Virus record (IMG/VR): IMGVR_UViG_3300028888_000051 | Coordinates: 163,384-227,383 of that record | Source: a virus | Lineage: Duplodnaviria > Heunggongvirae > Uroviricota > Caudoviricetes | Length of the DNA stretch: 64,000 nucleotides | Reading direction: 5' to 3' (one strand) | In this document: in pieces, positions 15-54,344 of the stretch | Position numbering within the stretch: position 1 is the stretch's first letter | Layout of the letters: each line of letters opens with the position of its first letter | Position numbers and translations under genes: made by a program | The notes under the pieces: generated by a model | What the model was told of the DNA's origin: nothing | The model's input: only the letters and a program-made list of their open reading frames with translations | Database searches by the model: none

Positions 15-2039
15 ATGAGTCGTGAACAAGAAAAAGATGCACGTAGAATGAATGATATTAAATTAGTTAAAAATATTTTTGGTGATGGACCTAATATGGT
101 ATATAATGATTTACATTCTTATATGGGTCAATTTGCTAATAATGAAAAAGCATATAAAGATGCTATTGAACAATTAAAACAAAATAAAGCTGAAAAAAAT
201 AAGGAAAATACAGATAAAGAACAAACAAAAACAGAAGCTTTTGATGATAATCAATTAGATAATGATGAAGTATGGTATTTAGAATATCAAACTAATATTC
301 CGGGAGAAACTTCTTATCTAAATAAAGCTTGGAGAGAAGCTGATTTACTTTCTGATAATTTAGATCAAGCTGCTAAATTTATTTCTCGTGATAATGCAAT
401 GACTGAATTACAAGAATTATATGCATCTAAACAAACTTCTTTTCCATTTAAACCGATAATTGGAGGAGCTTTTGAAGAATGTGGAGCATGTGCTACAACA
501 AATGCGAGTTTAGGTTCAGCTGTACAATATGTTAGTAATAAGAAAAAAGAAGAAAGTTTCGATGAAGAAAAATTAACTGAAGATCAAAGACTTGATGTAA
601 AAGATCGCTCAAAATTAAACAAAGAACTAATTAAAATAGCTAATATTAAAGATTTTGCTGGTAACGTTATTGGCAAAGCAGGTAAAACATTCCAAGAATA
701 TGCTGATAATAATGAATTAGGCTTTAATTATGATGAAAACGGTAATATAATATTTAACCAAAATGATAAAACATTAAGAGTTGCGGATGAATTGGCTAAT
801 CGTAGAATAGCTTTAGATTATGTTACTAATCAACCAATAGGTATGATTGACACTATTGGTAAAGTAAGAGATTTACATGGTAAACAAATTGGCTATTCAG
901 ATACTCGTGAAGCTGCAAAAAATCGTGGTATAGATTTAGATAAGCTTGACATAATATCTACTCATGATGATAATTGGCAATATACACAAAAAGCAGGTTC
1001 ACATTGGCGTAATGATGCAAATGCTATAAAATTTATGGATAAAGAAGGTAACATTAGAGATAAATATGCAGATGCTTGGCAAACTATAGCGAAAGATAAT
1101 AAAAAATTAAGAGATAATCCAGAATTATTACAAACAATGTTTGGTGGTTATTTCGAAAAAGGACAAATCTTAGATCCAAAATCATTTAAACAGCGTGTAT
1201 TAGAAATAAATGATACTTTTGGATTAGAATTAAATCCTGATGAACCAATGATTCCAAGTCAAATGAAAGCAGGTGGAAAACAACAGCAGGAATTTTATAA
1301 ATGGCGTGATAATTACTATAAACCTTTATTTAATGCTTCTCGTAGAAAAAATAAAGCTGCTGATAAAATTAATGCTGATAGAGAAAATTTTAGTAAAGAA
1401 CAAGATGAGTGGAGAGCTTCAGCTAATGATCGTGCTGAACAAGAACAAAGTATTCAGTATTTTATAAATGATATGCAAGATGCTAATAAACAATTTATGG
1501 ATGGTAAAATAAGTGGAAAAGATTTAAAAAATAAATTTATGTCCATTGCCTCAAATGATGCTATTCCAACATATATTAAAAGTAAATTAGCTAAAGATAC
1601 TTATAATGCATTCGCTTCTTATGATGAAGATATGGCTGATATGTGGAAAGAATTGAATAATCAATATTTTACTCAACAAGAATCTGTATTAACTGAAGAT
1701 GATTCTCCTGCTGATTTTGCAGATGGTCCTATATCATCAAATATGACTGGAACTATATCAACTACAGATCAAACAATAGATCAAACAGATACAATTTCAG
1801 ATGGAATAGATGATTATGGATTAGAAGAACCTAATATGAGTGGAGGAGCCAGTTTCGGTGATATAAATATTAATGCTGGGCCAGGAGAAAATGATGAAGC
1901 TCCTATTCAATCTACTGAAAACAAAAGAATTATAGATGTATTAGTAAATGAAAATGATCCATCTCAAATTAAATTAAAAATAAAAGATATGGATACAAAT
2001 AAAATTGAATTAAAAGATTTATCTGAAATTGATGTTTAA
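15..2039 (+). CDS. hypothetical protein (674 aa), Asn/Asp/Glu/Lys-rich with acidic Thr/Asp-rich C-terminal part; possible virion or internal protein
   Basis: Long uninterrupted ORF with ATG at 15; ends 4 nt inside convergent ORF 2036..2410; no catalytic motif recognised by eye. Confidence 0.6.
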   Translation: MSREQEKDARRMNDIKLVKNIFGDGPNMVYNDLHSYMGQFANNEKAYKDAIEQLKQNKAEKNKENTDKEQTKTEAFDDNQLDNDEVWYLEYQTNIPGETSYLNKAWREADLLSDNLDQAAKFISRDNAMTELQELYASKQTSFPFKPIIGGAFEECGACATTNASLGSAVQYVSNKKKEESFDEEKLTEDQRLDVKDRSKLNKELIKIANIKDFAGNVIGKAGKTFQEYADNNELGFNYDENGNIIFNQNDKTLRVADELANRRIALDYVTNQPIGMIDTIGKVRDLHGKQIGYSDTREAAKNRGIDLDKLDIISTHDDNWQYTQKAGSHWRNDANAIKFMDKEGNIRDKYADAWQTIAKDNKKLRDNPELLQTMFGGYFEKGQILDPKSFKQRVLEINDTFGLELNPDEPMIPSQMKAGGKQQQEFYKWRDNYYKPLFNASRRKNKAADKINADRENFSKEQDEWRASANDRAEQEQSIQYFINDMQDANKQFMDGKISGKDLKNKFMSIASNDAIPTYIKSKLAKDTYNAFASYDEDMADMWKELNNQYFTQQESVLTEDDSPADFADGPISSNMTGTISTTDQTIDQTDTISDGIDDYGLEEPNMSGGASFGDININAGPGENDEAPIQSTENKRIIDVLVNENDPSQIKLKIKDMDTNKIELKDLSEIDV

Positions 2040-5195: not shown

Positions 5196-7061
5196 ATGAA
5201 ATTTAATATACGCCGGATAGAAATTGAAAATTTTAGAAGTATACAATCTAAGGTTACAATTAATATTAAACCTGGTCTATATTCTATTGAAGGTATAAAT
5301 AATGATGAAAAAACCAGTACGAATGGAGCGGGAAAATCTTCATTAATTTCAGCTTTATATTGGTGTTTAACTGGCAATGCTTTAACAAATGAAGCATTAG
5401 CCGATGATGTCATAAACGCTAAGGTTGGTAAGAATTGTAAAGTAAGTGTTTTTATTGAATCATTACAAGGTGATATAAAAATCACTAGGACAAGAGGAGA
5501 TTCTGAATTTGGTAATAATTTATTTCTTGAAATAGCAGATCAAGATTTAACTTGTCATAAAGTTGCGGATACTCAAACAAGAATTAATCAATTGTTTAAG
5601 ATTCCGTTTGATTTATTACATAGTACTATCATGATGACTCACGACATTAAGTCTGCTTTTTCTGAACTTACTCCACAACAACGTGTACAAACTTTAGAAA
5701 GTATACGTGATTATTCTATTTGGGATAAAGTTAGAGATGAAGCAAATAAAGATATCAAAATATATAACAAAGAAATACAGGAGCTTAATTTGAAATTAAG
5801 TAACATGAATGGTAGTAAGCAAACATATGAAAAAATGATTGCTGCTGCGGGAGAAAACTATAAAGTAGTTGTTAAATCTTTTGATAAAATCGAAATTGAT
5901 AATAAAATTAATAGTCTAATAGAAGAAAATAAAAACTATGCTATTGAAATAGCAAATTTAGAATCTGATATTAAGGAATTTAATAATTTTATTGAAAAAA
6001 ATACAGATAATTCTTTACAAAAAAGACTTAATGAGATTACTGATACTGCTAGCAATATTAAACTTTCACTTCAGAGTGCGGAATACGAACGGAAAGAGAA
6101 AGTAAAGGATATTGATATTATCAATGCTTGGTTTAAAAATGATAAATGTCCTACCTGCGGTCATTTATTGGATAGAACAGAAGAAGAAAAAGCTGTAAAA
6201 TCTAGCCATCGTGATGAATTAAATAAACAGCTCAATCTAATTGATGAAAAAGTAAAAAAATTAAATAATGATATTGCTTTAAAGCGAGAAGAGTGGGCAC
6301 AAGTAAATACTCAATTGAAGGTTAGTGAAAAAACTTTAACAGATTTTAGAGCTAAATTGAGTGAAAGTAATAATAAGATAAATATTCTTAAGAGTAAAGA
6401 GCTTGCAAATACGCGAGAGTTAGCTAAGCTTGAGTTAGAAAAAAATACTCACTCTTCTCAAGTAGATAAGTTAGACAAAGATATTATCTCTTATAAAAAA
6501 GAAATAGAGTCAATCTCAGCTGGCGAAGCTATCATCAATGAACAACTTAAGTTACTTGAAAATAAAAAAGAGTTATCTGATTACTTTTTTAAGTTACTTG
6601 GTAGTAAAGGTGAGTTAAGGCCTTATCTTTTAAAACAAGATATTTGTTATTTAAATAACTGTATGCAAACATATATACATCAATTTTTTGAAAATACTGA
6701 AGTTGAATTACGTTTAGAAGGTCCAAATATAGAGATTTTAATAAATAGTAATGGTATTAAGAAAAAAGTAACAAGCTTATCGGGTGGTGAAAAAAAGCGC
6801 CTTAATATTGCTATTCAACTTGGTCTATATGATTTAATACAAGCTACTTCACAAGTATGTTTTAATGTACTTTGGTTAGATGAAATTGAATCAGAATTAG
6901 ATCAAGCAGGTGTAAATCAATTAATTAATATAATTGAAGATAAATCTAATGATGCTGAAACTGTATTTTGGATTACAAATCATCCAAACGTTAAGGAAAG
7001 TATTACAAATAAAATTATATGTACTAAATCTTTAGGTGTAACAACTATTGAGGAGAGATAA
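5196..7061 (+). CDS. Rad50/SbcC-type recombination ATPase (T4 gp46-like)
   Basis: Walker A NGAGKSS; long coiled coil with central zinc hook CPTCGH; ABC signature LSGGEKKR; Walker B LWLDEIE. Confidence 0.9.
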   Translation: MKFNIRRIEIENFRSIQSKVTINIKPGLYSIEGINNDEKTSTNGAGKSSLISALYWCLTGNALTNEALADDVINAKVGKNCKVSVFIESLQGDIKITRTRGDSEFGNNLFLEIADQDLTCHKVADTQTRINQLFKIPFDLLHSTIMMTHDIKSAFSELTPQQRVQTLESIRDYSIWDKVRDEANKDIKIYNKEIQELNLKLSNMNGSKQTYEKMIAAAGENYKVVVKSFDKIEIDNKINSLIEENKNYAIEIANLESDIKEFNNFIEKNTDNSLQKRLNEITDTASNIKLSLQSAEYERKEKVKDIDIINAWFKNDKCPTCGHLLDRTEEEKAVKSSHRDELNKQLNLIDEKVKKLNNDIALKREEWAQVNTQLKVSEKTLTDFRAKLSESNNKINILKSKELANTRELAKLELEKNTHSSQVDKLDKDIISYKKEIESISAGEAIINEQLKLLENKKELSDYFFKLLGSKGELRPYLLKQDICYLNNCMQTYIHQFFENTEVELRLEGPNIEILINSNGIKKKVTSLSGGEKKRLNIAIQLGLYDLIQATSQVCFNVLWLDEIESELDQAGVNQLINIIEDKSNDAETVFWITNHPNVKESITNKIICTKSLGVTTIEER

Positions 7062-7064
7062 TTA

Positions 7065-8099
7065 ATGAAAATAATGGTTTTTGGAGATATACATTTTCAT
7101 AATTCACATCGTTTTTCAAATATTGAACCTCAAGGATATACAACTAGAGAAATTGAACAATATAATTGTGCAAATACATTAATTAAAATAGCCAAAGAAG
7201 AAAATATTGATAAAGTTGTATTTTTAGGTGATGCTTGGCAAGCTGTTGGAGATACAATTTCTGCTGAAACGCAATCAATTATGATTGAATTTTTTGCTCA
7301 ATTGAGAAGATATTTACCAAATTTAGCAGTAATTCTTGGTAATCATGATTTAATTAATAATGATCCAACTATAAATAAACTTAATTTTCTTAAATATATG
7401 CCTCCAATTGAATTTTTTTCAAAACCTGAGGTAAAAAATGAGTTTGTTTATATGCCTTATTGTTTAAATGACGATGAAGCTATTCGTTTTTTAGAAAATA
7501 TTTCAGAAAAACAAAATAAAATAGTTTTTTCACATTTAGAATTAGGAGGAATAAATTTGGGTAATGGTATTTTTACTCAAAAAGGCGTTCCATTAGATTT
7601 ACTTAAACAATTTAAAATGACTTTACAAGGACACTATCATTCAGGTGGAAGTTATGGTCATAAAATTCAAATAGCTGGTTCTACACAAAGGCTTTCTTTT
7701 AAAGATAAAGGTATTTCACGTAATAATATTATTATTTATAATACTGATACTGATAAAATTATTAGAAAAAGTTTTGAAAGTCCAGATTGGTTAGTATTTG
7801 ATGATGATAACATAGAGAATATTCTTAAAATAGACAATAATAATTACGTTAAGGTTGATTTAACCAGTGATATTTTATTAACATCTGAAATAAAAACTAA
7901 ATTAGAACAAGTAAAAAATAAAACAGTACATATAGATTTAACACGTATATCTATAAATAAACAAATTACAGAAGAAATATCAGAAAAAGAAGATAATTTA
8001 GATGTAATAAGAAAATTTATTATTAAATCTAATAATACAGATGATAAAAAAGAACAATTAATACAAGAAGGAGTAAGATTATTAAATAAAATTAGTTAA
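7065..8099 (+). CDS. Mre11/SbcD-type nuclease (T4 gp47-like)
   Basis: Calcineurin-like phosphoesterase motifs GDIH, LGDAW, GNHD, SHLE, GHYH; directly follows the Rad50-like gene. Confidence 0.9.
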   Translation: MKIMVFGDIHFHNSHRFSNIEPQGYTTREIEQYNCANTLIKIAKEENIDKVVFLGDAWQAVGDTISAETQSIMIEFFAQLRRYLPNLAVILGNHDLINNDPTINKLNFLKYMPPIEFFSKPEVKNEFVYMPYCLNDDEAIRFLENISEKQNKIVFSHLELGGINLGNGIFTQKGVPLDLLKQFKMTLQGHYHSGGSYGHKIQIAGSTQRLSFKDKGISRNNIIIYNTDTDKIIRKSFESPDWLVFDDDNIENILKIDNNNYVKVDLTSDILLTSEIKTKLEQVKNKTVHIDLTRISINKQITEEISEKEDNLDVIRKFIIKSNNTDDKKEQLIQEGVRLLNKIS

Positions 8100-8100
8100 A

Positions 8101-8145
8101 TTGGAAAATTTATTTAAATATTTTATGGATTATTTAACTTCTATA
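8101..8145 (+). promoter_or_regulatory. bipartite TTGGAAAA-N31-TTCTATA element upstream of the gp32-like gene
   Basis: Same spacing and sequence classes as 5116..5160. Confidence 0.4.
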
Positions 8146-8202
8146 AAATGTAAAGTTTAATTTTTTGAATATAAACATGTTTATTTAAAAGGAAAATGTA
8201 AA

Positions 8203-9027
8203 ATGGAAAAAAGTTATAATGAAGAATGGATGAAAGATATTTTAAGTAGGAGTAAAGAAGCAATGGATGATTCATCTGGTTCATATCCTTCAACTGAATG
8301 GGTACAATATAAAAAAGGTTTCAAAAAGAGTATTACTTTTAAATTGATGCCTGCAAATAGTAAAGAAAACAATGTTTTTAGTCATATAGTTGCTCAACAT
8401 TGGATTCAAACATCAGATGGTAAAACAAAAAGATTCGTTTGTCCAGAAGAAACTGTACATTTGAAAGGTCAACATGTAAAATGCCCAGTTTGTGAAGCTA
8501 AACGTAAATTAAAAGCATTAGGTTTTACTGATGAGCAATTGAGTGTTGAAGGTAAATTTGGTTTAGTACCTGTATTTGATCCTAAATTTACTTCTAATGC
8601 AAAAGTTGTAGTTCTTCAGTCTGATGAAAAACAAGATTGGGATAGAGCTCATATTTCTGTATTACAACAGAATGGTACTTTCATGACTGTTTGGTTAGCT
8701 CAAAAATATGCTAGTAACGAAATTCCTAATTTTACTGAATTAGCATCTAGTAATCCTATTAAATTTTCTCGTCCAACAGATTCAGGTAAATGGGAACGTG
8801 AATTTAGTTTTAATGTATTTAATCCTTCTAGTGATGTTTTAGCAAAATTAAAAGAAGAAAATGAAGCATTAACTTTACCTGATTTGTGGAAAATGCCTTC
8901 AGATCAAGAGTTTATTGAAATTAGTCAATTGATGGAAGATATGCAAAAAAATTATCTTGCTGCTAGAGATACAATGACTAATACTTCTACTGATACTTCT
9001 ACTGTAGAGGATGACATTCCATTCTAA
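8203..9027 (+). CDS. gp32-like single-stranded DNA-binding protein with bacterial-SSB-like DDIPF C-terminal tip
   Basis: Collinear with T4 gp32 by eye (ITFKLMPANSKEN..; zinc site H..C..CPVCEA). Acidic Thr/Ser/Asp tail ends in VEDDIPF. Confidence 0.8.
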   Translation: MEKSYNEEWMKDILSRSKEAMDDSSGSYPSTEWVQYKKGFKKSITFKLMPANSKENNVFSHIVAQHWIQTSDGKTKRFVCPEETVHLKGQHVKCPVCEAKRKLKALGFTDEQLSVEGKFGLVPVFDPKFTSNAKVVVLQSDEKQDWDRAHISVLQQNGTFMTVWLAQKYASNEIPNFTELASSNPIKFSRPTDSGKWEREFSFNVFNPSSDVLAKLKEENEALTLPDLWKMPSDQEFIEISQLMEDMQKNYLAARDTMTNTSTDTSTVEDDIPF

Positions 9028-11552: not shown

Positions 11553-12092
11553 ATGACTAAAGTAAATATGATTGTTGCTATTGGTCCAGATAATATAATT
11601 GGATATAGTAATAAATTAGCTTGGCATTCAAAAAAAGATCTTGAGCATTTTAAAAATATAACTTTAAATAGACCAGTAATATTTGGAACAACAACTTTTT
11701 TTGGTTTACCTAAATATCCATTACCAAATAGATTAAATATTGTATTAGATAATAGTGAATATAAAGTATTTAATATCAATGCCATAAATGATAATAAAGG
11801 TGGTTGGATTGAAGCAACTTCAGTTGAAAGTGCCTTAGAATTTTGTAAAAATTTTGATAATATATTTATTTGTGGAGGAGCATCTATTTATAAATATTGT
11901 TTAGAAAAAAATTTAATAGATTGTGCATATATAACAAAAGTGAATTGTAAATTAGAAAATAGAGATGATTATATAAAATTTCCATTTGATATTAATAGAT
12001 ATTTAAATTATGAAAAATGGGATGCTAAATTAGAAGAAACAGTTTTTGATGAAGAAATTCAATTAGAATTCTGGAAATATATTAAAAAATAA
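11553..12092 (+). CDS. folA: dihydrofolate reductase
   Basis: MIVAIGPDNIIGYSNKLAWHSKKDLEHFKNIT, IFGTTTF and ICGGASIYKY match DHFR signature regions. Confidence 0.85.
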   Translation: MTKVNMIVAIGPDNIIGYSNKLAWHSKKDLEHFKNITLNRPVIFGTTTFFGLPKYPLPNRLNIVLDNSEYKVFNINAINDNKGGWIEATSVESALEFCKNFDNIFICGGASIYKYCLEKNLIDCAYITKVNCKLENRDDYIKFPFDINRYLNYEKWDAKLEETVFDEEIQLEFWKYIKK

Positions 12093-13755: not shown

Positions 13756-15501
13756 ATGTCTAAAAAGTTTTTAGTTGATATTGACCTTAACGGTAATGAA
13801 TTGCAAAATGCCGTAATACAAAATCTGGCTTCTGCTCCTGAAAATCCAAAAGAAGGTCAACATTATTTTAATACTGTAGATGAGGTAGAATATTATTGGA
13901 ATGGCACACAGTGGATTAATGTTGCTGGTGATTATACATTTAAAAATGGTATTGAACAAGTTTCTGGCACACGTGATGTTCAGATTAAAGTAGCCACTGG
14001 TAATGCTGCTGGTAATATTGCAATTACTGCTAATACAGATGGTTTAGCGGCAACAGTTGCAGATGCTTCAACTACTACAAAGGGTATTATTGAAATAGCA
14101 ACTGATCAAGAAGCTGCTACAGGTACTAGTGAAGTTTTAGCAGTTAATCCAAAACAATTGGCAACAAAAGTTGATAAATTGACTTCTGGACCAACTGCCG
14201 GTACATATACTAAAGTAACAGTTAATAGTGAAGGTCAGGTTACTGCTGGTACAACTATTACCTTATCTGATGTTACTGATATCACTGCAACTGCTGCTGA
14301 AGTTAATATTTTAGATGGTATTACAGCAAATACATCTGAATTAAATATTTTAGATGGGGCCACTTTAACTACAACTGAATTAAACTATGTTGATGGTGTT
14401 ACTTCATCAATTCAAGATCAATTAGATAGCAAAGTTGCAAAAAATGCTGATATTACAGCTTCTACGACTGGTAAAACAATAATTACATATGATGCAAAAG
14501 GTCTTGTTACTGGTGGATCAGAAATTAGTATTGATAGCAATTCAACAAATTATTTAGAATTTGATACAATAAATCATAATATTAAAGCTAAAGTTGATAC
14601 TACAGTTACAGATCAATCAACCAAATTAGTAACATCTGGAGCAGTTTATACGGCTATTACAAATGCTTTAGTCGGTGGTGTTATTTATCAAGGTACTTGG
14701 GATATTACATCAGCTACTGATTTTTCTGGTATTACTCTTCCTGTTAAAAAAGGATATTTATATTATGTAATTGGTACAGGTCCTAAAACTATTGGTGGAA
14801 TCGAATGGAATGCTGGTGACTATTTATTAGTTAATGATGATGTTGATGTAGGTGGATCATTAAGTGGAAAAATTGAAAAAATTGATAACTCTGAAGCCGC
14901 TGATATTGTAAGATTAAATGCCATTCAAACTTTAACTAATAAAACAATTGATGCTGATGATAATATAATTTCTGATTTAACGACTACTAATTTAAAATCT
15001 GGTGTATTACAAACAAGTATTCGTGATGCTTTGACTGCAACTGATACTTCTTTGGCTTCAGAAAAAGCAATTCGCACAGAATTGGATACAAAACAAGATA
15101 AAGTTACTACAGCTGTTGAAAATAATTTAGCCATATGGAATGCTTCGGGTAATACAAAAGATTCAGGTAAAGCATTTGTAACAAGTATTGGTCCTTCTAG
15201 TGGAACTGGAGCAGCTACTGATAATCAAATTCCAACAGCTTTAGCTACTAGATCTGCAGTTGATACAGCGATAAGTAATAGTAAAACAACAATTAGTTGT
15301 CCAACATTAACTGCTTCTTCTGGTGTTGCTACATGGTCAATAACAGGTTTAGCAAGTGATCCTTATGCAATTACTATATTAGATTCATTAAATAATGAAG
15401 TTATTGCAGATATAACTTATGGAACTAAAGCAGCTACTATTATGTTTAATACAACAACAAATATTGAAGCTGATAGTTTTGTTGCAAAAATACTCATGTA
15501 A
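13756..15501 (+). CDS. tail fibre protein (581 aa)
   Basis: TTKGIIEIATDQEAATGTSEVLAVNPKQL fibre motif; triple (S/A)ELN(I/Y)(L/V)DG repeats; Thr/Ser/Gly/Ala-rich. Confidence 0.75.
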   Translation: MSKKFLVDIDLNGNELQNAVIQNLASAPENPKEGQHYFNTVDEVEYYWNGTQWINVAGDYTFKNGIEQVSGTRDVQIKVATGNAAGNIAITANTDGLAATVADASTTTKGIIEIATDQEAATGTSEVLAVNPKQLATKVDKLTSGPTAGTYTKVTVNSEGQVTAGTTITLSDVTDITATAAEVNILDGITANTSELNILDGATLTTTELNYVDGVTSSIQDQLDSKVAKNADITASTTGKTIITYDAKGLVTGGSEISIDSNSTNYLEFDTINHNIKAKVDTTVTDQSTKLVTSGAVYTAITNALVGGVIYQGTWDITSATDFSGITLPVKKGYLYYVIGTGPKTIGGIEWNAGDYLLVNDDVDVGGSLSGKIEKIDNSEAADIVRLNAIQTLTNKTIDADDNIISDLTTTNLKSGVLQTSIRDALTATDTSLASEKAIRTELDTKQDKVTTAVENNLAIWNASGNTKDSGKAFVTSIGPSSGTGAATDNQIPTALATRSAVDTAISNSKTTISCPTLTASSGVATWSITGLASDPYAITILDSLNNEVIADITYGTKAATIMFNTTTNIEADSFVAKILM

Positions 15502-15526
15502 GAGTAATCTTTGTTTTTGTTATTTC

Positions 15527-15556
15527 AAGAGAGTCATATTTCAGACTCTCTTTTTA
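15527..15556 (+). terminator. rho-independent-type terminator after the tail fibre gene
   Basis: Stem AAGAGAGTC/GACTCTCTT, 8-nt loop, T-run. Confidence 0.65.
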
Positions 15557-15567
15557 TTATAATATAA

Positions 15568-15586
15568 AAGTTCTATAAAATAAATA
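15568..15586 (+). promoter_or_regulatory. AAGTTCTATAAAATAAATA box upstream of the prohead protease gene
   Basis: GTTCTA box fused to a TATAAATA-like string; about 45 nt upstream of ATG 15627. Confidence 0.45.
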
Positions 15587-15626
15587 TGTTTAAACAGTTT
15601 TTAATTAATAAAATTAGGATCCTATA

Positions 15627-18611
15627 ATGTCAGAAAAACAATTACTTATCGAATCTTCTGATTTTAATCTTACTTGTAATTTATCAGAAAAAGACAGAGA
15701 AAATTTAACTGAATCTTTAAAAATTTCTGCAGGTAAACATGGTAATTTGATTGTCAAAAATATTCCATGTACAATACTTGATAGACGTAATCAAAATGGA
15801 CGTATATATCCTACAGCTTTAATGCAAAAAGCAATTAATGAAGCTATGCCAAAAATGAAAGCTAAAATGTTAGTGTGTTCTGCTTCTGAGCATCCTTCTG
15901 GAAGTTTTTGTGAACCAGCTAATATTTCACACGCTGTTATTAATGCATATATAAAAAATGTTGAAATTGAAGTTGAAGGTAAAAAAGAAAGACATAATGT
16001 ACTTTTTAATGATTGGGAAGTATTAAATGAAAAAAGTCAAGTTGCAGCTCATGTTCAGCAATTAATTTTATCTGGATTTGGTATAGGTACATCTATTCGT
16101 TCACTAGGTTCTTGTGATCCAGATGGTACAGTAACAGAATTAGAATATTTAGGAACTGATATTGTAGGACAACCTTCATCTTCTACTTATGTTAATATGC
16201 CAATTAATGAATCAGTAGAAGTAACAACAATTCCTTTAACAGAAACTTATGTTGTATCAGCTTCTGCTACAAATGTTGTAAGAGATTTAGATTCTGCATT
16301 AGCATTATCTCAACAAATTGATTCTGCTAATTTTGGTACTGTAAAAAAGACTTCTACAAAACTTGATTCTGAGGTTGATCCTAAAACGGGTGCAGAAACA
16401 ACAATGGTTACATTAGAAACTGAAACAGAAGATGAAGTATCAGAATTAGATCAAGCATTAATGATGGCTAAACAAGCCATGTTAAATGGAAAAGCTGATA
16501 TTGATTCTGTTACAATAGAAAATATTAAAGAAGAACAACCAAAAGAATCTGTTGAAAACAAAGATGATGAAAAAGCATTAAATGAAGAGAATAAAATAAC
16601 AGAAAATCATTTTGCTCCTTTACCTCATATTACTTCAATTACAAATCATATTTTATTGAATTATCCAAAAGAAAGCGAAGCTTATAAAGTAGCTTTACAT
16701 ATTCAAAATGATTTAATTACTAATAGATTAAAAGATAGACAAGCAGCTTTAGAAGAATTAAAAAAATATGTAGATATAACTAAAGACGAATATGTACCTG
16801 AATCTGTTATGAATGAAGTAGGTGTTGATAAGTTAATGGATGAAATTCGTAACATTATGTATAATGAAGGTTTGTCTCTTGAACAGGCTTGTCGTAAATA
16901 TTGTGAACATCATGAAAATATTCCATATGAATATGTATTGGAATATATGAGAACAAATCCAGTTACTGAATCAATTACAGAAGCTAAAGAAGAAAAGCAA
17001 GAAGATCCAAATGAAGGTAAGCAATATGTTTTGAAAACTTCTCAGGGTTTTGTTGCTATGGATGGTAATGCTATTTCATTTGTAGATAATCCTAAAGAAG
17101 CTATTCATTTTATTAAGGGTAAAGAAGAATCAGGAGTTGTTCATTTATCTGGAATTAATAAAATTCTTGAAACAATGGGTATATATGATGTACAAAAATA
17201 TTTTAAAAAAGGTACAACAGATATTTCCGCACCAAATGATATAAATATACAAAATGCCAAAAATGCAGGCATCGAAGTTAAAGAGTGTGGTAATATAGAT
17301 ATGCCAATGACTGAAGATAATGGCTCAAATACACGTTTTAAAGCTACTGTAAAAATTACTGATGAAAATGGAGAGTCTTCTGAAGATATTCCTGTTTCAG
17401 CAATTGATATGGAAGGTATTAATGCTGAAATTTCTAATCTTTATGATATGAAAAAACAAAAAGGTAATCCAGTTATCACTGTTACAGATACTACTTCTGG
17501 TCAACAATTTACATATAATCCAGAGTCTCGTCAAATTGAATTAATGAATATACAAACTGAAGCGAGTGGTGATTTAGAGCAAGATGGAAATAAACTTTCT
17601 ATGGAAATTGATGATAACAATAAAGTAGAAAAAGAATTTAATTCACCGGTACAAGCCGCAGTTGCAAAAGCAGGTATTGAAGCAGGCAAACTTGGTGGTG
17701 ATGTTCTTTTGAGTGAAGATGATGAAGATTCAGATACAGCTAAATGTGCATGGTGTGGTGAAGAATTTGAAAAATCTGCATTACGTAAAGAGAAAGATTT
17801 AGGTTATCTTTGTAACACTTGTGCAAAAGGAATTCAATCAAGAGAAGGTTCATTAACATTTGAAGAAGATTTAGCAAATGATCCACATATTTATAATCAA
17901 GGAAAAGATGAAATAGATAATGGTCAAGAACCTAATATGAATAAAATTGCGGATTCTATTCGCTATATTGCTAAAAAAACTGATTGCTCACTAAAAGATG
18001 CAATGGATATCTATGAAAAGATTACAGGTTTTAAATTTGATGAAAAAGATTCTATTTCAGAAGAAGTTCATAGACCAAATTATGAAGATATAGAACCAGG
18101 ATGGTATGCAGGAGCTCAAAATATTGGTGTTACTGGACCTTATGAATCAAAAGAAACATTGCTTGCAGATTTAGGTGAAGTAGCAGATAAAATTGATATT
18201 GAATATATTTCACCAGAAGATTTAGGGCTTGCTGCTGAATCATCTAAAATAGATGAAGTATTATATAATAAACCTAGTAAGGCTTCTGATCCATTAATTA
18301 AAACACCATTAGAAGAAGATGATGATGAATCTCCAGCGGTAAATATTTTATTTAAAAATATTGATTGGAATACTAAAGACTTTATGAATTCTATGATGGC
18401 TAATATGGAAAATGATGATCCTGTTAATATAGAAGATATAAAGTCAAAAGTAAAAGATTTACCAGATGAAGCAACTATTACTGTTAAAGTTAATGAAATA
18501 CCTTTATCTGATGATAGTTTACTTGAAAAATTTTTATTTGATAAACTTGGTAAAAAGTATGCCATGAAAGTAAATAATGCAGAAATGGCAAATATAAGTT
18601 GGGCAGTATAA
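15627..18611 (+). CDS. T4 gp21-like prohead core protease fused to a roughly 800-aa acidic extension
   Basis: N-terminus aligns by eye with T4 gp21 (MSEKQLLIES; NQNGRIYP; SASEHP; GTSIRSLGS). The remainder is Glu/Asp-rich with an internal CAWCG..CNTC zinc ribbon. Confidence 0.75.
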   Translation: MSEKQLLIESSDFNLTCNLSEKDRENLTESLKISAGKHGNLIVKNIPCTILDRRNQNGRIYPTALMQKAINEAMPKMKAKMLVCSASEHPSGSFCEPANISHAVINAYIKNVEIEVEGKKERHNVLFNDWEVLNEKSQVAAHVQQLILSGFGIGTSIRSLGSCDPDGTVTELEYLGTDIVGQPSSSTYVNMPINESVEVTTIPLTETYVVSASATNVVRDLDSALALSQQIDSANFGTVKKTSTKLDSEVDPKTGAETTMVTLETETEDEVSELDQALMMAKQAMLNGKADIDSVTIENIKEEQPKESVENKDDEKALNEENKITENHFAPLPHITSITNHILLNYPKESEAYKVALHIQNDLITNRLKDRQAALEELKKYVDITKDEYVPESVMNEVGVDKLMDEIRNIMYNEGLSLEQACRKYCEHHENIPYEYVLEYMRTNPVTESITEAKEEKQEDPNEGKQYVLKTSQGFVAMDGNAISFVDNPKEAIHFIKGKEESGVVHLSGINKILETMGIYDVQKYFKKGTTDISAPNDINIQNAKNAGIEVKECGNIDMPMTEDNGSNTRFKATVKITDENGESSEDIPVSAIDMEGINAEISNLYDMKKQKGNPVITVTDTTSGQQFTYNPESRQIELMNIQTEASGDLEQDGNKLSMEIDDNNKVEKEFNSPVQAAVAKAGIEAGKLGGDVLLSEDDEDSDTAKCAWCGEEFEKSALRKEKDLGYLCNTCAKGIQSREGSLTFEEDLANDPHIYNQGKDEIDNGQEPNMNKIADSIRYIAKKTDCSLKDAMDIYEKITGFKFDEKDSISEEVHRPNYEDIEPGWYAGAQNIGVTGPYESKETLLADLGEVADKIDIEYISPEDLGLAAESSKIDEVLYNKPSKASDPLIKTPLEEDDDESPAVNILFKNIDWNTKDFMNSMMANMENDDPVNIEDIKSKVKDLPDEATITVKVNEIPLSDDSLLEKFLFDKLGKKYAMKVNNAEMANISWAV

Positions 18612-18614
18612 AAC

Positions 18615-18625
18615 AGTTCTAATTT
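18615..18625 (+). promoter_or_regulatory. AGTTCTAATTT box upstream of the scaffold-like gene
   Basis: GTTCTA box about 50 nt upstream of ATG 18673. Confidence 0.35.
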
Positions 18626-18672
18626 AATAGTAAATAATTTTTATTAATCTAGATTTTAAGGAAAAACATATT

Positions 18673-19386
18673 ATGACAAAAGAAGAATTTTTACGTCTTT
18701 TAAGTGAATCTGAAGTTAAAAATGCTGAAGATACGCTTTCTAATATTGAAACAAAAGAAGTTAAAGATGTTGAGCCTGCTGAAGGTATTAAAGGTTTAGA
18801 TTCTGAATTACCTACACAGAAAGATATCGAAAAAGAAGTAGCAAAAGATGAGGGTCCGGTTGTTCCAGCTGATAAAGATGGTGTTTCTAAAAACGGTGGT
18901 GAATGTGACTGTTTAGAAGCTGGTAAAATTGAAGCAGAACGCAAAAAAGAAGATAATAGCATGAAAGATGTTATTAACGTTTCTAGTCGTAAAGTTGAAG
19001 AAAATAGTGAAGTAAGTAATGAATTGTTAGCTCAACTGAAAGAAGCTGCTGCTCGTGAAGAAGCTATGAAAAATCAAATTACTGAAATGAAAAAACTTTG
19101 TGAAGAAGCTTTATTAGCTCAAGAAGCAGACTTAGTAAAGACTCACGCAAAAGAAATGAAAAAAGTATTTGAAGCAGTAATTGCTGAAGGCGAAAAATTT
19201 GAAAAAACTTTAACTGAATCTTCTGCTAAAAATGAAAAATTATATAAGAAAGCTCAAAAGATGTATGAAAGCTCTGCAAAATTAAATAAAATTTTGTTAG
19301 AAGCAGTAAAGAAATCTCAACCTGAACAAAAAATGGTTCGTTATCAATCTGCTACTGCAAGAGCTATGGCTTCTTTGCGTAAGTAA
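18673..19386 (+). CDS. prohead scaffold-like protein (gp22-like, 237 aa)
   Basis: Highly charged Glu/Lys/Ala-rich predicted coiled coil directly after the prohead protease gene. Confidence 0.55.
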   Translation: MTKEEFLRLLSESEVKNAEDTLSNIETKEVKDVEPAEGIKGLDSELPTQKDIEKEVAKDEGPVVPADKDGVSKNGGECDCLEAGKIEAERKKEDNSMKDVINVSSRKVEENSEVSNELLAQLKEAAAREEAMKNQITEMKKLCEEALLAQEADLVKTHAKEMKKVFEAVIAEGEKFEKTLTESSAKNEKLYKKAQKMYESSAKLNKILLEAVKKSQPEQKMVRYQSATARAMASLRK

Positions 19387-19416
19387 TATATTAAATATAT
19401 TGCATTTTATTTTCTT

Positions 19417-19450
19417 AAAAAAGGATCGGTTATTTTATCGATCCTTTTTT
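19417..19450 (+). terminator. rho-independent terminator
   Basis: Stem AAAAAAGGATCG/CGATCCTTTTTT with a 10-nt loop; T-run. Confidence 0.75.
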
Positions 19451-19472
19451 AAACTAATTTAAGGTATAATGT

Positions 19473-20246
19473 ATGTTTATAAAAATAATTAAATTCATGT
19501 TTAGTTGGTTTAATAAAAAAGAAAAGATCGAAGAATCAAAACCTGTTGAAGTACAAGAAAAACAGGAATCAAAACCAATTACAGTATCAATTGAAAAAGA
19601 AAATGAAAAAATTAAATTAACATGGTTATTTTTACGTGAAACATTATATAAAGTTAATAATAATCTTAATAAGAATGATTGTGATTATTATTATGAAGCT
19701 TTAAATAAAATACTTCCTCAATATGAAATTAATACTAAACTCAGAGTTTGTCATTTTTTGGCACAAATTTTACATGAAAGTGGGCATTTAAAATATAAAT
19801 CTGAAAATTTAAATTATTCTGCGAAAGCTTTACGTTCTGTTTTTGGCAAATATTTTAAAACAGATGAAATCGCAAAAGCATATGAAAGAAAGCCAGAAAA
19901 AATTGCTAATAGAGTATATGCTAATCGCATGGGTAATCGTAATGAAGCGAGTGGTGATGGGTATAAATTTCGTGGGCGTGGACTTATTCAACTCACTGGA
20001 GCTAACAATTATAAGATTTGTGGACAAGATTTAGGTTTAGACTTAGTAAAAAATCCAGATTTAATTATATCTGATCCAGAAATTTGTGTAAAAACAGCTT
20101 GTTGGTTCTGGAATAAGAACAAATTAAATGAATTAGCAGATAAAGATGATATAAATGCTATAACAAAATGTATTAATGGTGGCTTAAATGGAATCGATGA
20201 TCGCCGTAAAATATTAAATTTAGCTAAAGATAAAATAAATATATAA
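19473..20246 (+). CDS. endolysin, glycoside hydrolase family 19 (chitinase-like lysozyme)
   Basis: FLAQILHESGHLKYKSENLNYS and YKFRGRGLIQLTGANNY are GH19/COG3179-type signatures. About 60-aa Lys/Glu-rich N-terminal extension. Confidence 0.8.
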   Translation: MFIKIIKFMFSWFNKKEKIEESKPVEVQEKQESKPITVSIEKENEKIKLTWLFLRETLYKVNNNLNKNDCDYYYEALNKILPQYEINTKLRVCHFLAQILHESGHLKYKSENLNYSAKALRSVFGKYFKTDEIAKAYERKPEKIANRVYANRMGNRNEASGDGYKFRGRGLIQLTGANNYKICGQDLGLDLVKNPDLIISDPEICVKTACWFWNKNKLNELADKDDINAITKCINGGLNGIDDRRKILNLAKDKINI

Positions 20247-24584: not shown

Positions 24585-25451
24585 TTACATTTTCTCCATT
24601 ATTTCTTTTAGCACTTTACAATCACAAACAAAACATTCATTTGAATCAGAATAACATTTTTTAAAATTTTCTGAATGACCACATTTACTTTTATTTGATG
24701 AGATATCAACTAGTTTTCCATTTTCAGATTTTTGTAAAATAATATTTTGATTTAAAAGAAAATTATTACAATATTCTGTACCATAACCTGGAAGTTGTTC
24801 ATTAAGTTTTAGAATAGTTTTAAAAACAGTTTCTCTTGTTGGAGCTTTTATGTCTTTTCCAAATTTTATATAGGGTATTGTATTTACTTTAACGTTATAG
24901 TTATTTTCATACTCAGCTATGTTAAATTTTTCAGATAATACATCATTACAAAAACTTCTGGTTAAAATAATATTGACATATATAAGTAACTCAGGAAATA
25001 AATTTCTAATTTCAGTGAGATTAAAATAAAATTGTTTCATAGAAAAAGAATTAGAAAATCTTCCATCTCCATCACCAGAAGTAGTAAAATGTATTCTATT
25101 TTCTAATTTATAATCTTTTATCATATTTAATATTGGTAAAAGAAGTTCATGAATATCATATAAAATATTTGTATTAATATAACATAATTCAATTTCATTT
25201 TTTAACATTTTTTCACAAGTTAATTTGAATAATTTAAATAATTGTGAATTTATTATTGTATTTTTTTCTGCAAATATTTCACCACCAACGAATAGTATAT
25301 GTGTATCAGTTAAGTCTTTTACTGCATTATATATTAATTTTATCGATTCAAGTTGTTCTTCATGAGTTTGTTGTTTTTCTCTTTTTTGCCAGCAAAATTT
25401 ACAATTATTTGGACAATTATTCCAAAGAATGAATTCATGTATAGGTAACAT
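24585..25451 (-). CDS. radical SAM enzyme, paralogue A (288 aa)
   Basis: CPNNCKFC; FVGGEIF; C-terminal CGHSENFKKCYSDSNECFVCDC; first gene of the four-gene operon. Confidence 0.8.
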   Translation of the reverse strand: MLPIHEFILWNNCPNNCKFCWQKREKQQTHEEQLESIKLIYNAVKDLTDTHILFVGGEIFAEKNTIINSQLFKLFKLTCEKMLKNEIELCYINTNILYDIHELLLPILNMIKDYKLENRIHFTTSGDGDGRFSNSFSMKQFYFNLTEIRNLFPELLIYVNIILTRSFCNDVLSEKFNIAEYENNYNVKVNTIPYIKFGKDIKAPTRETVFKTILKLNEQLPGYGTEYCNNFLLNQNIILQKSENGKLVDISSNKSKCGHSENFKKCYSDSNECFVCDCKVLKEIMEKM

Positions 25452-41027: not shown

Positions 41028-42377
41028 TTAAGCTATAATATTATCTGGTCCATTATTAATTGATAAATCATATTTTTGTTTATAAAAAGGACCTACTTTA
41101 TTTAGCATTTTTTTAACCGTAGAGTGAATACTTTCATTTTCTAAATCAATTATGCCTTCAGGAACCTCTTGCTTACCACGAAGTAAAATACGAGCAATAA
41201 GTTGACCTAATTCAAAGCACATAGATTCATCAAAACCCCGAGTTGTAATCGCTGGAGTACCAATTCTAATTGCAGAAGATTCAGATGGTTTAGTATCACC
41301 CGGCATCATGTTTTTATTACAAATAATATGATATGATGTTAATAAGTCTTCAGCCTGTTTACCATTTATACCAGAATTTCTAAGGTCTACTAATACCATA
41401 TGATTTTCTGAGCCATTACTAATGAATCCTATTTTATTTTCTTTATCGAAATCTCTTATACCATTGATAAGTGCTTGCATATTACAATATACTTGTTCTA
41501 TATAATCTTTAAATTCTGGTTTGAGAGCTTCAATAAAACATTGTGCTTTAGCAGCAACAAGTGCTTCATTTGGACCACCTTGAATTTTTGGAAAACACCC
41601 ACTGTTAATTTTACTACAAAGTTTTTGGTCATTCCAAAGAATTATACCACCACGAGGTCCTCTTAAAGTTTTGTGTGTTGTAGAAGTGATCACATCACAC
41701 CATTTAGTTGGATCATATTTATCTTTCCATAAATGAGCAGCAATAAATCCCATTACATGAGCTGAATCAGACATAAGATAACATTTTGTTTCTTCATCCC
41801 TACCAAGATTATATACATCTACCAATTTCCTTATATATTCATAATTAATTCGTTTAGAATAAGCTGAAGCTCCAACAACTAACATTCTTGGATGATATTG
41901 AAGTAATTTTTGTTTAATTTCTTCATAATTCAATTCACCATTTTCATCAAGACCATAATATACAGGATTATATATATGACCTGTTAATGAAGCTTTAGAG
42001 TAGTGTGTCAAATGTCCGCCATATTCTATGCCCATTCCAAGTACTGTATCACCTGGTTTTAAAAGACCTGCATATACAGCTTGATTAGCCTGAGAGCCAG
42101 AATGAGGTTGAACACAAGCAAAATTTACATTAAATAATTCTTTAGCTTTTTCTATAGCATAATTTTCTACTTCATTTATTACTTCACATCCAGCATAATG
42201 ACGTCCCTGTTTAGAAACTTCATTTGGAAATCCTTCTGCATACTTTACAGATAAATGACTTCCCAAAAGATCAAGAATATCTTGACTTGGATAGTTTTCT
42301 GAAGCTATTAATTCAATACCATCATTAAGACGATTTGTCTCTTTGCTTTCTAATTGTTGTAATTTTTGATCAATCAT
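41028..42377 (-). CDS. glyA: serine hydroxymethyltransferase
   Basis: LIASENY, YAEGFP, VQPHSGSQAN, GGHLTH and TTHKTLRGPRGG (PLP-Lys context) are all present in order. Confidence 0.95.
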   Translation of the reverse strand: MIDQKLQQLESKETNRLNDGIELIASENYPSQDILDLLGSHLSVKYAEGFPNEVSKQGRHYAGCEVINEVENYAIEKAKELFNVNFACVQPHSGSQANQAVYAGLLKPGDTVLGMGIEYGGHLTHYSKASLTGHIYNPVYYGLDENGELNYEEIKQKLLQYHPRMLVVGASAYSKRINYEYIRKLVDVYNLGRDEETKCYLMSDSAHVMGFIAAHLWKDKYDPTKWCDVITSTTHKTLRGPRGGIILWNDQKLCSKINSGCFPKIQGGPNEALVAAKAQCFIEALKPEFKDYIEQVYCNMQALINGIRDFDKENKIGFISNGSENHMVLVDLRNSGINGKQAEDLLTSYHIICNKNMMPGDTKPSESSAIRIGTPAITTRGFDESMCFELGQLIARILLRGKQEVPEGIIDLENESIHSTVKKMLNKVGPFYKQKYDLSINNGPDNIIA

Positions 42378-50991: not shown

Positions 50992-51210
50992 ATGTATGAA
51001 AAATTAATAGATCTTAAAGATAATTTTTTATTTTGTATTGCAACTACATTTGTTGGAATTTTAATTATGATAATAGCTAGTGTTATTATAATTATAACAC
51101 TTCCAATGTATTATTTATTTTGGATAAATCCAGTATTTGAAATTTATCAAAATTTAATTTGGAAAATATATGATATATTATTTCAAATTGGATCAGATGA
51201 TGAAATTTAA
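50992..51210 (+). CDS. small membrane protein (72 aa, two hydrophobic segments); holin-like topology
   Basis: FLFCIATTFVGILIMIIASVIIIITLPMYYLFWINPVF; AAAGGAAA RBS. Confidence 0.45.
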   Translation: MYEKLIDLKDNFLFCIATTFVGILIMIIASVIIIITLPMYYLFWINPVFEIYQNLIWKIYDILFQIGSDDEI

Positions 51211-54200: not shown

Positions 54201-54344
54201 TGGCATATAATGCTCTTCATAATATGCTAAAATGTCTATAAAATCTTGTGACATAATAACATTTTGAAGTTCATTTGCATTATTAAATGAAACTATTGGA
54301 AGATTTTCTAATTTTTTTGCAATATCAGTAGGAAGTTGTTCCAT
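51207..54344 (-). CDS. terL: terminase large subunit, interrupted by an intein in the Walker A motif
   Basis: The exteins join to FGGSIG|CGKST (P-loop). Walker B-like SFMDEINE. Nuclease-domain pattern CHVDLAGGGD...DAGICIGH. Confidence 0.85.
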   Translation of the reverse strand: MEQLPTDIAKKLENLPIVSFNNANELQNVIMSQDFIDILAYYEEHYMPDEFKKQQEIQKRIALYLTLTNQDSDLTDQIDNLLYRRPMPNIEEFLSGKFYMYNSNATLYPYWRQQLEYMFREGSPVRKTIFGGSIGCLTGDTIVATLNGNKTIYELLNNYNNEWVLSFNTFNKTWEPDKIINVFCSGIKDVYKITLDNGEIIKCTSDHRFLTRKNKWKSIDTGLKSGESMMPYYSKISDKGYIQIKNNTTEKWEKRYQIVGKWKTLYKTGQVVHHKNFNKLDDRPQNLAIIPHKYHWEYHAKVGGRRWKEYNASIRGDEFKEYRRQKGIKSHITYKARLDYEEIEAKRKIGWNKLHQDSEHQRKASLAGWNGPHSEEYRQRASKTLIERNKTEKARNISKKMAENMRNLKANKSPEEKAIILAKQVLATIARFHGKENQKYIELLAFIHTREPWYDPTLGAKENYKRKKIYNHKIISIEYIGKQQVYDITTEKNHNFALKAGIIAHNCGKSTIARKAFLYVLYRILCLRYPRAVFNIDSDATIANVIISMTLKQVYETNLLPFVKLMETMPCFQRVMRMQSFENFDLSDPHCPIPFNVEKSTGTIYFPDNIIITSGSGITHTIGLNIVNSFMDEINEKGVDEALALLNSVDNRFSSRFQGSPLVFQSVVSSARTTNSPIGEYIRRLPKNDPSILILMPRLWEVKEDPEFLGDGSTFPVLVGNGSIPSKIFTDPGELKALEDGNYIPPIGCEVINVPTVYKEKFELQLDQSIQDIAGMTTVDNSTVFKDISKIEDAELPPEFNIKADISDNNDILALLDEYNLWEQLTDGRWIFKRAPFAKRYCHVDLAGGGDSGQCDAGICIGHKEWRYNENKKENETIYVVDLLIAVNARNKIDIHAIETFLINLVIERNMLIHTVSSDQWNGEIFQQNLAKSGCFEVVNKVSVDIKLEPYVNASTLMELGQVKVGICPKLRKELSALVFDRGKVTRTTELKDLADVIVGFIYNAQLNYSDFPQYEYISSNQIKEKVNDYSNFIDQSSEELQDLI
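52827..53939 (-). mobile_element. class-1 intein (371 aa) with HNH endonuclease domain
   Basis: Starts CLTGDTIV; block B CTSDHRF; HNH core VVHHKNFNKLDDRPQNLAIIPHKYHWEYH; ends VYDITTEKNHNFALKAGIIAHN followed by the +1 Cys. Coordinates derived from residues 136-506 of the track ORF. Confidence 0.8.

Follow-up and report, generated by a model that had tools for sequence, protein, structure and literature searches.

Why should a phage head-maturation protease of a type that comprises just 212 residues in T4 carry some 800 additional residues at its C-terminus? This question is raised by a locus in the IMG/VR virus record IMGVR_UViG_3300028888_000051 (Caudoviricetes), of which a stretch of 64,000 nucleotides (positions 163,384 to 227,383 of the record) was analysed. 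That whole stretch is called the window here, and its numbering is used for all coordinates of open reading frames (ORFs) and domains. A preliminary description, made from the letters of the DNA, had read one ORF in the window as a T4 gp21-like prohead protease fused to a long acidic extension. The ORF is intact, with 994 codons and a stop, and at the window's G+C content of approximately 25% its length is far beyond chance, since stop codons are frequent at this composition. We propose that it encodes a self-processed pro-protease of approximately 111 kDa, whose enlarged C-terminal pro-region would bring core or cargo domains into the prohead. We place the probability of this reading, in which cleavage, targeting and the fate of the released domains are inferred, at roughly 0.6.

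Both sequence comparison and structure prediction indicate that the N-terminus of the 994-residue protein is a prohead protease of the T4 gp21 (S77) type. PHROG 207 ('head maturation protease') matches residues 5–249 (E = 1.3e-11), and in hhalign T4 gp21 is matched over its residues 2–177 by a profile built from 70 homologues (91.9% probability, E = 7e-7). A Foldseek search of the PDB with the AlphaFold model places three chains of 5JBL (T4 gp21) at the top (E = 7e-6, template-modelling score 0.67–0.69), and these are the only PDB matches of the model with E <0.001. Moreover, residues 1–205 used as a tblastn query retrieve gp21 genes in 211 phage records, including those of KVP40 and nt-1. The relationship is a distant one, with a sequence identity to T4 gp21 of only ~21–25%. 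The Pfam S77 family, PF03420, scores below its cut-off on the window protein (16.2 bits against 27), and a precomputed match to it is present in 11 of 120 listed homologues. These 120, on which all family counts given below are based, are the best of 321 matches from a word-indexed search.

The histidine and serine contexts that had been recognised by eye, SASEHP (H89) and GTSIRSLGS (S156), are both present. Together with D178 these two residues align in hhalign with H85, S140 and D166 of T4 gp21 and are invariant in the 70 sequences, the triad of the T4 enzyme being His/Ser/Asp (PMC5694885). The similarity extends to the first residues of the protein, MSEKQLLIE/S as compared with MNEPQLLIE/T in T4 gp21, which becomes active once its first nine residues are lost and the active site is thereby unblocked (PMC9958956). 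E9 is invariant in the 70-sequence alignment and 99% conserved among the 120 homologues. At the second N-terminal motif L27 and E29 are invariant, with LKE/S kept at this place in sister families.

The fusion is a family trait. Proteins of 675–1330 residues, encoded on metagenomic contigs of up to 263 kb, make up the best 120 homologues and keep the protease joined to its extension. With only the extension (residues 206–994) as query, exhaustive searching by HMMER gave three tiers of matches. The first consists of 38 clusters at 50% identity (E ≤1e-30), all of them long proteins in which the match lies at the expected internal position. In the second are proteins of 497–1118 residues that share only the domain following the protease (D2), at their residues ~200–320; the 13 such sister-family proteins that were tested all begin with this protease (E 1e-47 to 1e-59), and their downstream extensions are unrelated. 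Approximately 100 proteins share with the extension only its zinc ribbon, to which we return below.

The full-length AlphaFold model, built on the 70-sequence alignment, has a mean predicted local distance difference test score (pLDDT) of 70 and a predicted template-modelling score of 0.29. It takes the form of beads on a string, with folded blocks parted by 11 segments of pLDDT <50 (Table 1). The extension is acidic, as first described (20% Asp + Glu, isoelectric point 4.4), and according to this model comprises approximately eight small acidic folded domains on disordered linkers, five of which (D2, D4, D5, D7 and D8) are constant. Their order is the same throughout the family, Protease-D2-[slot 1]-D4-D5-[slot 2]-D7-D8, and the two slots vary in length among homologues from 5 to 477 residues (slot 1) and from 2 to 277 residues (slot 2). 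Residues 761–815, which overlap the helical cassette hC, are nearly unique to the window phage. In slot 1, hA is present in 5 of the 120 family members and hB in 52.

D2 is the best-conserved region after the protease, with many invariant columns, and is common to the 13 sister-family representatives; a tblastn search with it against 50,697 phage records gave no match. Sub-significant Foldseek matches to the ferredoxin-like proteins PII and CutA (E 0.03–0.2), which judging by topology probably belong to D2, were not used to assign function. D8, at the C-terminus, is a candidate prohead-targeting end by analogy with the C-terminal propeptide of SPN3US gp245 (PMC7411985). No Pfam domain reached threshold in residues 200–994, PHROGs returned nothing beyond the protease but a 48-residue match of unknown function, and a PDB sequence-profile search found 5JBL alone, weakly, and nothing for the extension. 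Foldseek against BFVD returned other proteases only and was uninformative on the extension domains. No paralogues of any of the protein modules were found elsewhere in the window.

If the extension is removed by the protease itself, T4-like (L/I)-x-E cleavage motifs might be expected in it, and a search for them had been suggested in the preliminary description. As a raw count such motifs are not enriched, with 31 [LIVM]-x-E tripeptides against 25.5 ± 4.2 expected (p = 0.11), and the test was therefore moved to motif placement and conservation, which carry the weight of the argument. Motifs were counted as conserved when [LIVM] at P3 and Glu at P1 were kept in at least ~80% of the 120 homologues. 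Twelve sites qualify (E9, E29, E72, E195, E206, E302, E320, E392, E452, E563, E697 and E877), ten of which lie in, or no more than one residue from, the predicted linkers, which account for 20% of the chain (hypergeometric p~5e-6). Eight of the 11 linkers hold a conserved motif. In the window protein itself, linkers contain 15 motifs where 6.1 are expected from linker composition (p = 0.002), as opposed to 9 in the folded parts where 14.2 are expected, and D5 has none. Control tripeptides ([LIVM]xD, xK, xN and others) show conservation less frequently, and where they do it is confined to folded blocks. The E195 and E206 motifs, at the predicted boundary of the mature protease, are each 99% conserved among the 120 homologues, and the motifs at 9, 29, 195, 206 and 320 persist in the 13 sister-family representatives while the surrounding linker sequence has diverged.

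A natural cassette exchange respects the same boundaries. A close relative of the window protein (P0002) is 96–97% identical to it over residues 1–327 and 450–994 and lacks hA, in place of which a new cassette of ~110 residues sits exactly between VTE/S and (V/I)TE/A. As the swap falls exactly between motifs, we conclude that cassettes are exchanged as motif-bounded units.

These observations enabled us to propose a model for the maturation of the protein. It is plausible that the extension, probably through its constant domains and D8, delivers the still inactive protease to the prohead core during assembly, along with the 237-residue scaffold-like protein encoded directly downstream. The protease would then strip off its own nine N-terminal residues, as in T4, free itself at E195/E206, and go on to cut the linkers. 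Cuts at the conserved sites would yield, by computation, a mature protease of ~18 kDa and pieces of ~7–20 kDa, all of them acidic (isoelectric points 4.2–5.8). Because the conserved sites are confined to linkers and the domains are without them, the pieces would be freed as intact folded domains and not shredded, to be either kept in the head as internal proteins or expelled on DNA entry. C-terminal autocleavage has precedent in gp21, phiKZ gp175, 201phi2-1 gp268 and SPN3US gp245, and a core-targeting role has been proposed for the C-terminal propeptide (PMC7411985, PMC9026906, PMC5694885); all four enzymes cut after Glu (PMC9026906, PMC5694885). The self-processed polyprotein first suggested for this ORF thus gains comparative support from the conserved [LIVM]-x-E motifs in predicted linkers, whereas processing itself, and the ejection or degradation of its products, we infer.

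Several points weigh against this model, the unremarkable total motif count being the first. The linkers are rich in Glu, so that motifs are easier to find there, and their definition depends on a model of moderate confidence. Cleavage specificity is assumed by analogy with T4, and the phiKZ and SPN3US relatives favour Ser, Ala or Gly at P3, not Leu or Ile (PMC7411985, PMC5694885). Self-cleavage after Glu is suggested by the motif pattern alone and, as the window yielded no major capsid protein, the propeptide site of that protein was unusable as a check on specificity. Finally, the extension domains have no recognisable function or fold relative, so that roles in the core, as scaffold or as cargo are assigned by analogy only.

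A more specific form of the self-processing model treats the protease as a capsid-targeting vehicle, with the cassettes, and perhaps the constant domains, as internal proteins that are injected; we regard this as a tentative proposal. The pieces might conceivably have the host as their target, for instance by countering its defences or by mimicking DNA, in the manner of T4 IPI* and Alt or of the 'polyvalent proteins'. The two hypervariable slots turn over their cassettes even between 96%-identical phages, the linker-only placement of conserved cut sites would free domains whole, and every predicted piece is small and acidic. In the part of the polyvalent-protein account drawn on here, many domains are combined in one virion-associated polypeptide and an embedded peptidase is proposed to release them, which provides a precedent; what defines such proteins there is the presence of effector or enzymatic domains that can be recognised, and their embedded peptidases are of the zincin-like MPTase type (PMC5512222). 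Set beside that account, the window protein has both an embedded, here N-terminal, protease and a virion-gene context. It differs in that neither Pfam nor PHROGs detects an effector or enzymatic domain in the extension, which counts against a cargo role, and in that its peptidase is the head-maturation protease itself. The fixed order of D2, D4, D5, D7 and D8 is likewise more suggestive of a structural role than of diversifying cargo. Those internal proteins of T4 that remain with the DNA are for the most part basic, as opposed to the acidic pieces predicted here. Should the proposal nevertheless be true, and we think it rather doubtful in its full form, the protease would be a vehicle for expression, packaging and processing, in which any cassette set between two [LIVM]-x-Glu linkers reaches every capsid at protease stoichiometry, is freed there, and is injected with the genome. 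The two slots would then hold an evolvable payload of small acidic proteins directed at the host (for example anti-defence factors or the zinc-ribbon module), an arrangement used by a large clade of uncultivated phages of ~230–260 kb.

Herpesvirus UL26, lambda C/Nu3 and P2 gpO each join an N-terminal assembly protease to a C-terminal assembly module that is released by self-cleavage, and in these systems the extension is the scaffold itself, also expressed from nested in-frame starts. The window protein shares the covalent union of an N-terminal assembly protease with a C-terminal module, and its extension could by this comparison be the main scaffold, destroyed or expelled at maturation and possibly also made separately from an internal start. 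The acidity of the extension agrees with such a role, as scaffolds are acidic, and so do the coiled coil-like appearance, by eye, of the ~290-residue extension in a phiXF1 coding sequence of 474 residues and the name 'prohead core scaffolding protein and protease' given to Tenacibaculum phage entries of 527–564 residues. We nonetheless consider this explanation unlikely. In the model the extension consists of small globular alpha/beta and helical domains, a modular arrangement in which no elongated helical scaffold appears. None of the 29 internal in-frame ATGs has a Shine-Dalgarno-like site 4–12 nt before it, against a background of 5%, and no internal promoter signal stands out or is in excess within the gene. 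Moreover, the position of gp22 is taken by the separate, more conserved and helical 237-residue gene, and hhalign of the family profile against T4 gp22, gp67 and gp68 shows no similarity (0.06–0.4% probability, including the downstream gene against gp22).

It is more improbable still that the 994-residue protein acts uncleaved, for instance tethered to an internal head structure, with its motifs kept for some purpose such as binding. The motif total, which is no higher than chance, would suit this view; however, the hydrophobic P3 and the Glu at P1 are kept in otherwise divergent disordered linkers, in the family and in its sister families alike, cassette boundaries coincide with motifs, and all characterised relatives shed their C-terminal region (PMC7411985, PMC9026906, PMC5694885). 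An artefactual joining of two or more genes through a sequencing or assembly error is refuted, since the 208- and 812-residue pieces on one 9.5-kb contig (P0123/P0126) that might suggest it are a broken copy, 97–98% identical to parts of an intact 1330-residue protein on six other contigs, since assemblies made independently (ENA, Logan and JGI) contain the identical 994-residue protein (P0001), in one case on a contig of 227 kb, and since more than 120 full-length homologues, as well as the sister families, retain the fusion. Seeming cases of the extension as a separate gene (P0160, P0165–P0167, P0174 and P0180) start or stop in mid-domain and were judged to be truncated gene calls.

How, then, does the proposed self-processed pro-protease compare with known enzymes? 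With T4 gp21 it shares the fold, the triad, the LLIE9 activation site, an [I/V]-x-E/S sequence at the end of the catalytic domain (ITE/S in T4) and a small helical acidic gene directly downstream. The T4 tail, however, extends ~25 residues past the catalytic domain, as compared with ~800 residues and approximately eight domains here. SPN3US gp245, phiKZ gp175 and 201phi2-1 gp268 have a C-terminal region that is cut off by autocleavage after Glu, as is predicted for the window protein. Their propeptide is ~64 residues long and without folded domains, their motif is A/S/G-x-E and not L/I/V/M-x-E, and their cleavage was shown by experiment, whereas the window protein is known from sequence and a model. 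Long C-terminal extensions on S77-type proteases are also found in the public entries A0A8S5L6X1 (1074 residues, 'prohead core protein serine protease'), in those of Tenacibaculum phages PTm1 (564 residues) and pT24 (527 residues), all three known as annotations, and in phiXF1.

The last of these, phiXF1_160 of Xanthomonas phage phiXF1 (PP475461.1; L007 4605–6029), is annotated 'hypothetical protein'. Among cultured phages it provides the nearest relative of the protease (40% identity), and it starts MSRKLLIE; its extension is basic, unlike that of the window protein, and it appears to be an unannotated protease-scaffold fusion.

T4-lineage prohead proteases have been known as enzymes of ~200–270 residues with short self-removed tails, and here a whole clade of large uncultivated phages has ~500–1100 extra residues, as seen in the 38 clusters and in the sister families that share the protease-D2 unit. 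That a protease can be linked to an assembly module which it then cuts off is already known as a principle. Within the literature searched we found no description or analysis of the extensions of S77 proteases. The new variations on this principle are its scale, an architecture of domains and linkers with conserved cut motifs, and the turnover of the cassettes. If processing takes place as proposed, in-frame insertion would offer a simple route to expand or swap capsid-internal proteins, and a blueprint from nature by which large capsids could be loaded with foreign proteins, and the predicted cleavage sites would be directly checkable in metaproteomes.

The extension also draws attention to a widespread zinc-ribbon module of ~50 residues and of unknown function. 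The CAWCG...CNTC segment noticed at the outset is present (residues 707–732, nt 17745–17822) and, judged from sequence and model, the CxxC...CxxC unit is a C4 zinc ribbon and predicted metal site. It is, however, a mobile accessory cassette and not the fixed feature of the extension it had been taken for. Of the 120 family members 92 possess it, some of them in two copies; its place may be either slot or the stretch between D7 and D8, and its family form is CxWCG...EKDLGxxCxxC. AlphaFold models the ribbon as short strands (residues 704–729), and no curated Pfam family matched it at threshold. A module of the form CxWC[GN]...EKDLGxxCxxC..I[EK]SRG..L.FE occurs in unannotated, very acidic proteins of 53–937 residues (P0162–P0266; median 23% Asp + Glu), in which an acidic run often precedes the ribbon. 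The four cysteines are invariant across 85 unrelated carriers, and stand-alone mini-proteins of 53–81 residues exist. Among ten carriers scanned, P0202 alone is a head protease; it is of the PF09979 type, another family of head-maturation proteases, and has the ribbon in its C-terminal extension. Contigs bearing ribbon proteins were too short for their genomic context to inform.

Table 1. Positions in the 64,000-nt window of the protease gene, its predicted domains and motifs, and adjacent signals.
Feature	Position	Strand	Basis or remark
Terminator-like hairpin closing the upstream fibre-like gene	15527..15552	+	Marks start of the protease transcription unit
Shine-Dalgarno-like AGGA	15616..15619	+	7 nt 5' of the ATG
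Whole ORF, 994-residue pro-protease polyprotein (proposed)	15627..18611	+	Intact, 994 codons + stop
L-I-E9, predicted N-terminal self-cleavage (activation) site	15645..15653	+	Aligns with T4 gp21 LLIE9
L-T-E29/S, second conserved N-terminal motif	15705..15713	+	
S77 protease domain, residues 30-195, 18.1 kDa	15714..16211	+	Profile, structure, triad alignment
Catalytic H89	15891-15893	+	
Catalytic S156	16092-16094	+	
Catalytic D178	16158-16160	+	
Low-confidence linkers	Residues 1-19, 196-205, 302-332, 386-399, 446-459, 529-567, 641-648, 697-702, 811-820, 869-888, 890-901		AlphaFold
Linker with I-N-E195/S and L-T-E206/T, predicted C-terminal boundary of mature protease	16203..16244	+	pLDDT <50 at 196-205
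D2, residues 206-301, beta-alpha-beta-beta-alpha-beta	16242..16529	+	Predicted secondary structure
Linker with I-K-E302 and L-N-E320/E	16524..16586	+	pLDDT <50 at 302-332; sister families keep L-x-E/E
Slot 1, helical cassettes hA (333-385) and hB (399-445)	16623..16961	+	
V-P-E392/S, between hA and hB	16794..16802	+	
I-T-E452/A, motif before D4	16974..16982	+	95% conserved; low-confidence linker 446-459
D4, residues 460-528, small beta-rich domain with one helix	17004..17210	+	120/120 members
M-T-E563/D, end of D4-D5 linker	17307..17315	+	E563 100% conserved; linker 529-567 pLDDT ~30
D5, residues 568-696, alpha/beta	17328..17714	+	120/120 members
L-S-E697/D, motif after D5	17709..17717	+	91% conserved; linker 697-702
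Zinc-ribbon cassette, residues 703-745, CAWCG-x18-CNTC then I-x-S-R-E/G tail	17733..17861	+	
hC, residues 753-810, helical cassette	17883..18056	+	4/120 members; column occupancy 0.02
D7, residues 821-868, small beta-beta-alpha-beta (PGWY...G..GP)	18087..18230	+	109/120 members
I-D-E877/V, D7-D8 linker	18249..18257	+	E877 invariant; linker 869-901 pLDDT <50
D8, residues 902-994, conserved C-terminal alpha/beta domain	18330..18608	+	Family conservation, model
237-residue gene, acidic N-terminal half, helical C-terminal half	18673..19386	+	Scaffold candidate by position

The gene following that of the protease had been called a gp22-like scaffold gene. A separate gene does stand there, but homology to gp22 was not borne out (BLASTP E 0.75; hhalign 0.06% probability), and no Pfam or PHROG match was obtained. 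It is syntenic in three diverged loci at 63–69% identity, where the proteases are ~40% identical, and its product has a conserved L-x-E/S near the N-terminus and an [LM]-x-E/[SA] near residue 182. The gene recalls gp22 in position, size and composition, and a scaffold function is plausible by position only. In a scan of 15300–19600 the hairpin listed in Table 1 was the sole terminator-like site, with none found between the protease gene and this gene. TATAAATA, the T4 late-promoter motif, has 39 occurrences where 32 are expected, none of them upstream of the protease gene.

Two side observations concern the protease gene itself. In several homologues the D4-D5 linker (~17211–17327 equivalent) has a Gly/Ala-rich hydrophobic stretch of 40–50 residues, e.g. 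EEGLLGGTVGAAAGGAIGGAVAGPLGALSGAASGYSLGS, which resembles a glycine zipper or membrane-active segment and is absent from the window protein. An antisense ORF of 141 Ser-rich residues (18140–18565, minus strand) lies within the gene; most likely it is not a gene and arises from the Glu/Asp-rich sense strand.

Fibre-like genes lie 5' of the protease gene, and 3' of the 237-residue gene is an endolysin gene. This GH19-type endolysin (19473–20246, plus strand) adjoins the protease/237-residue pair, and a muramidase occupies the same place in a related locus, a conserved and unusual placement of a lysis gene beside head-assembly genes. Neither a portal nor a gp23-type capsid gene was found in the 64-kb window, and tblastn with the T4 portal, capsid and tail proteins found no match there; in a related locus (L006) a Portal_T4 gene is located 8 kb upstream of the protease gene.

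Further away, a 1045-residue ORF (51207–54344, minus strand) has a match to the large terminase subunit limited to residues ~464–577, as well as HNH-endonuclease-like stretches at ~235–312, and loci related to the window encode proteins of 814–827 residues with Intein_splicing matches. The ORF may represent a terminase into which an intein or a homing endonuclease has been inserted. Near it, at 55218–57167 (plus strand), is a gene for a 649-residue homing/HNH endonuclease (PHROG 3339, E 2.5e-88). T4-like replication/recombination genes and metabolic genes are found at 5196–9027, 11553–12092, 24585–25451 and 41028–42377; they comprise an SbcC/SbcD-like nuclease (gp46/47 type), dihydrofolate reductase and serine hydroxymethyltransferase, along with weak gp32-like and radical-SAM matches. 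Such a gene set would fit a jumbo phage of ~227 kb and ~25% G+C that is distantly T4-like.

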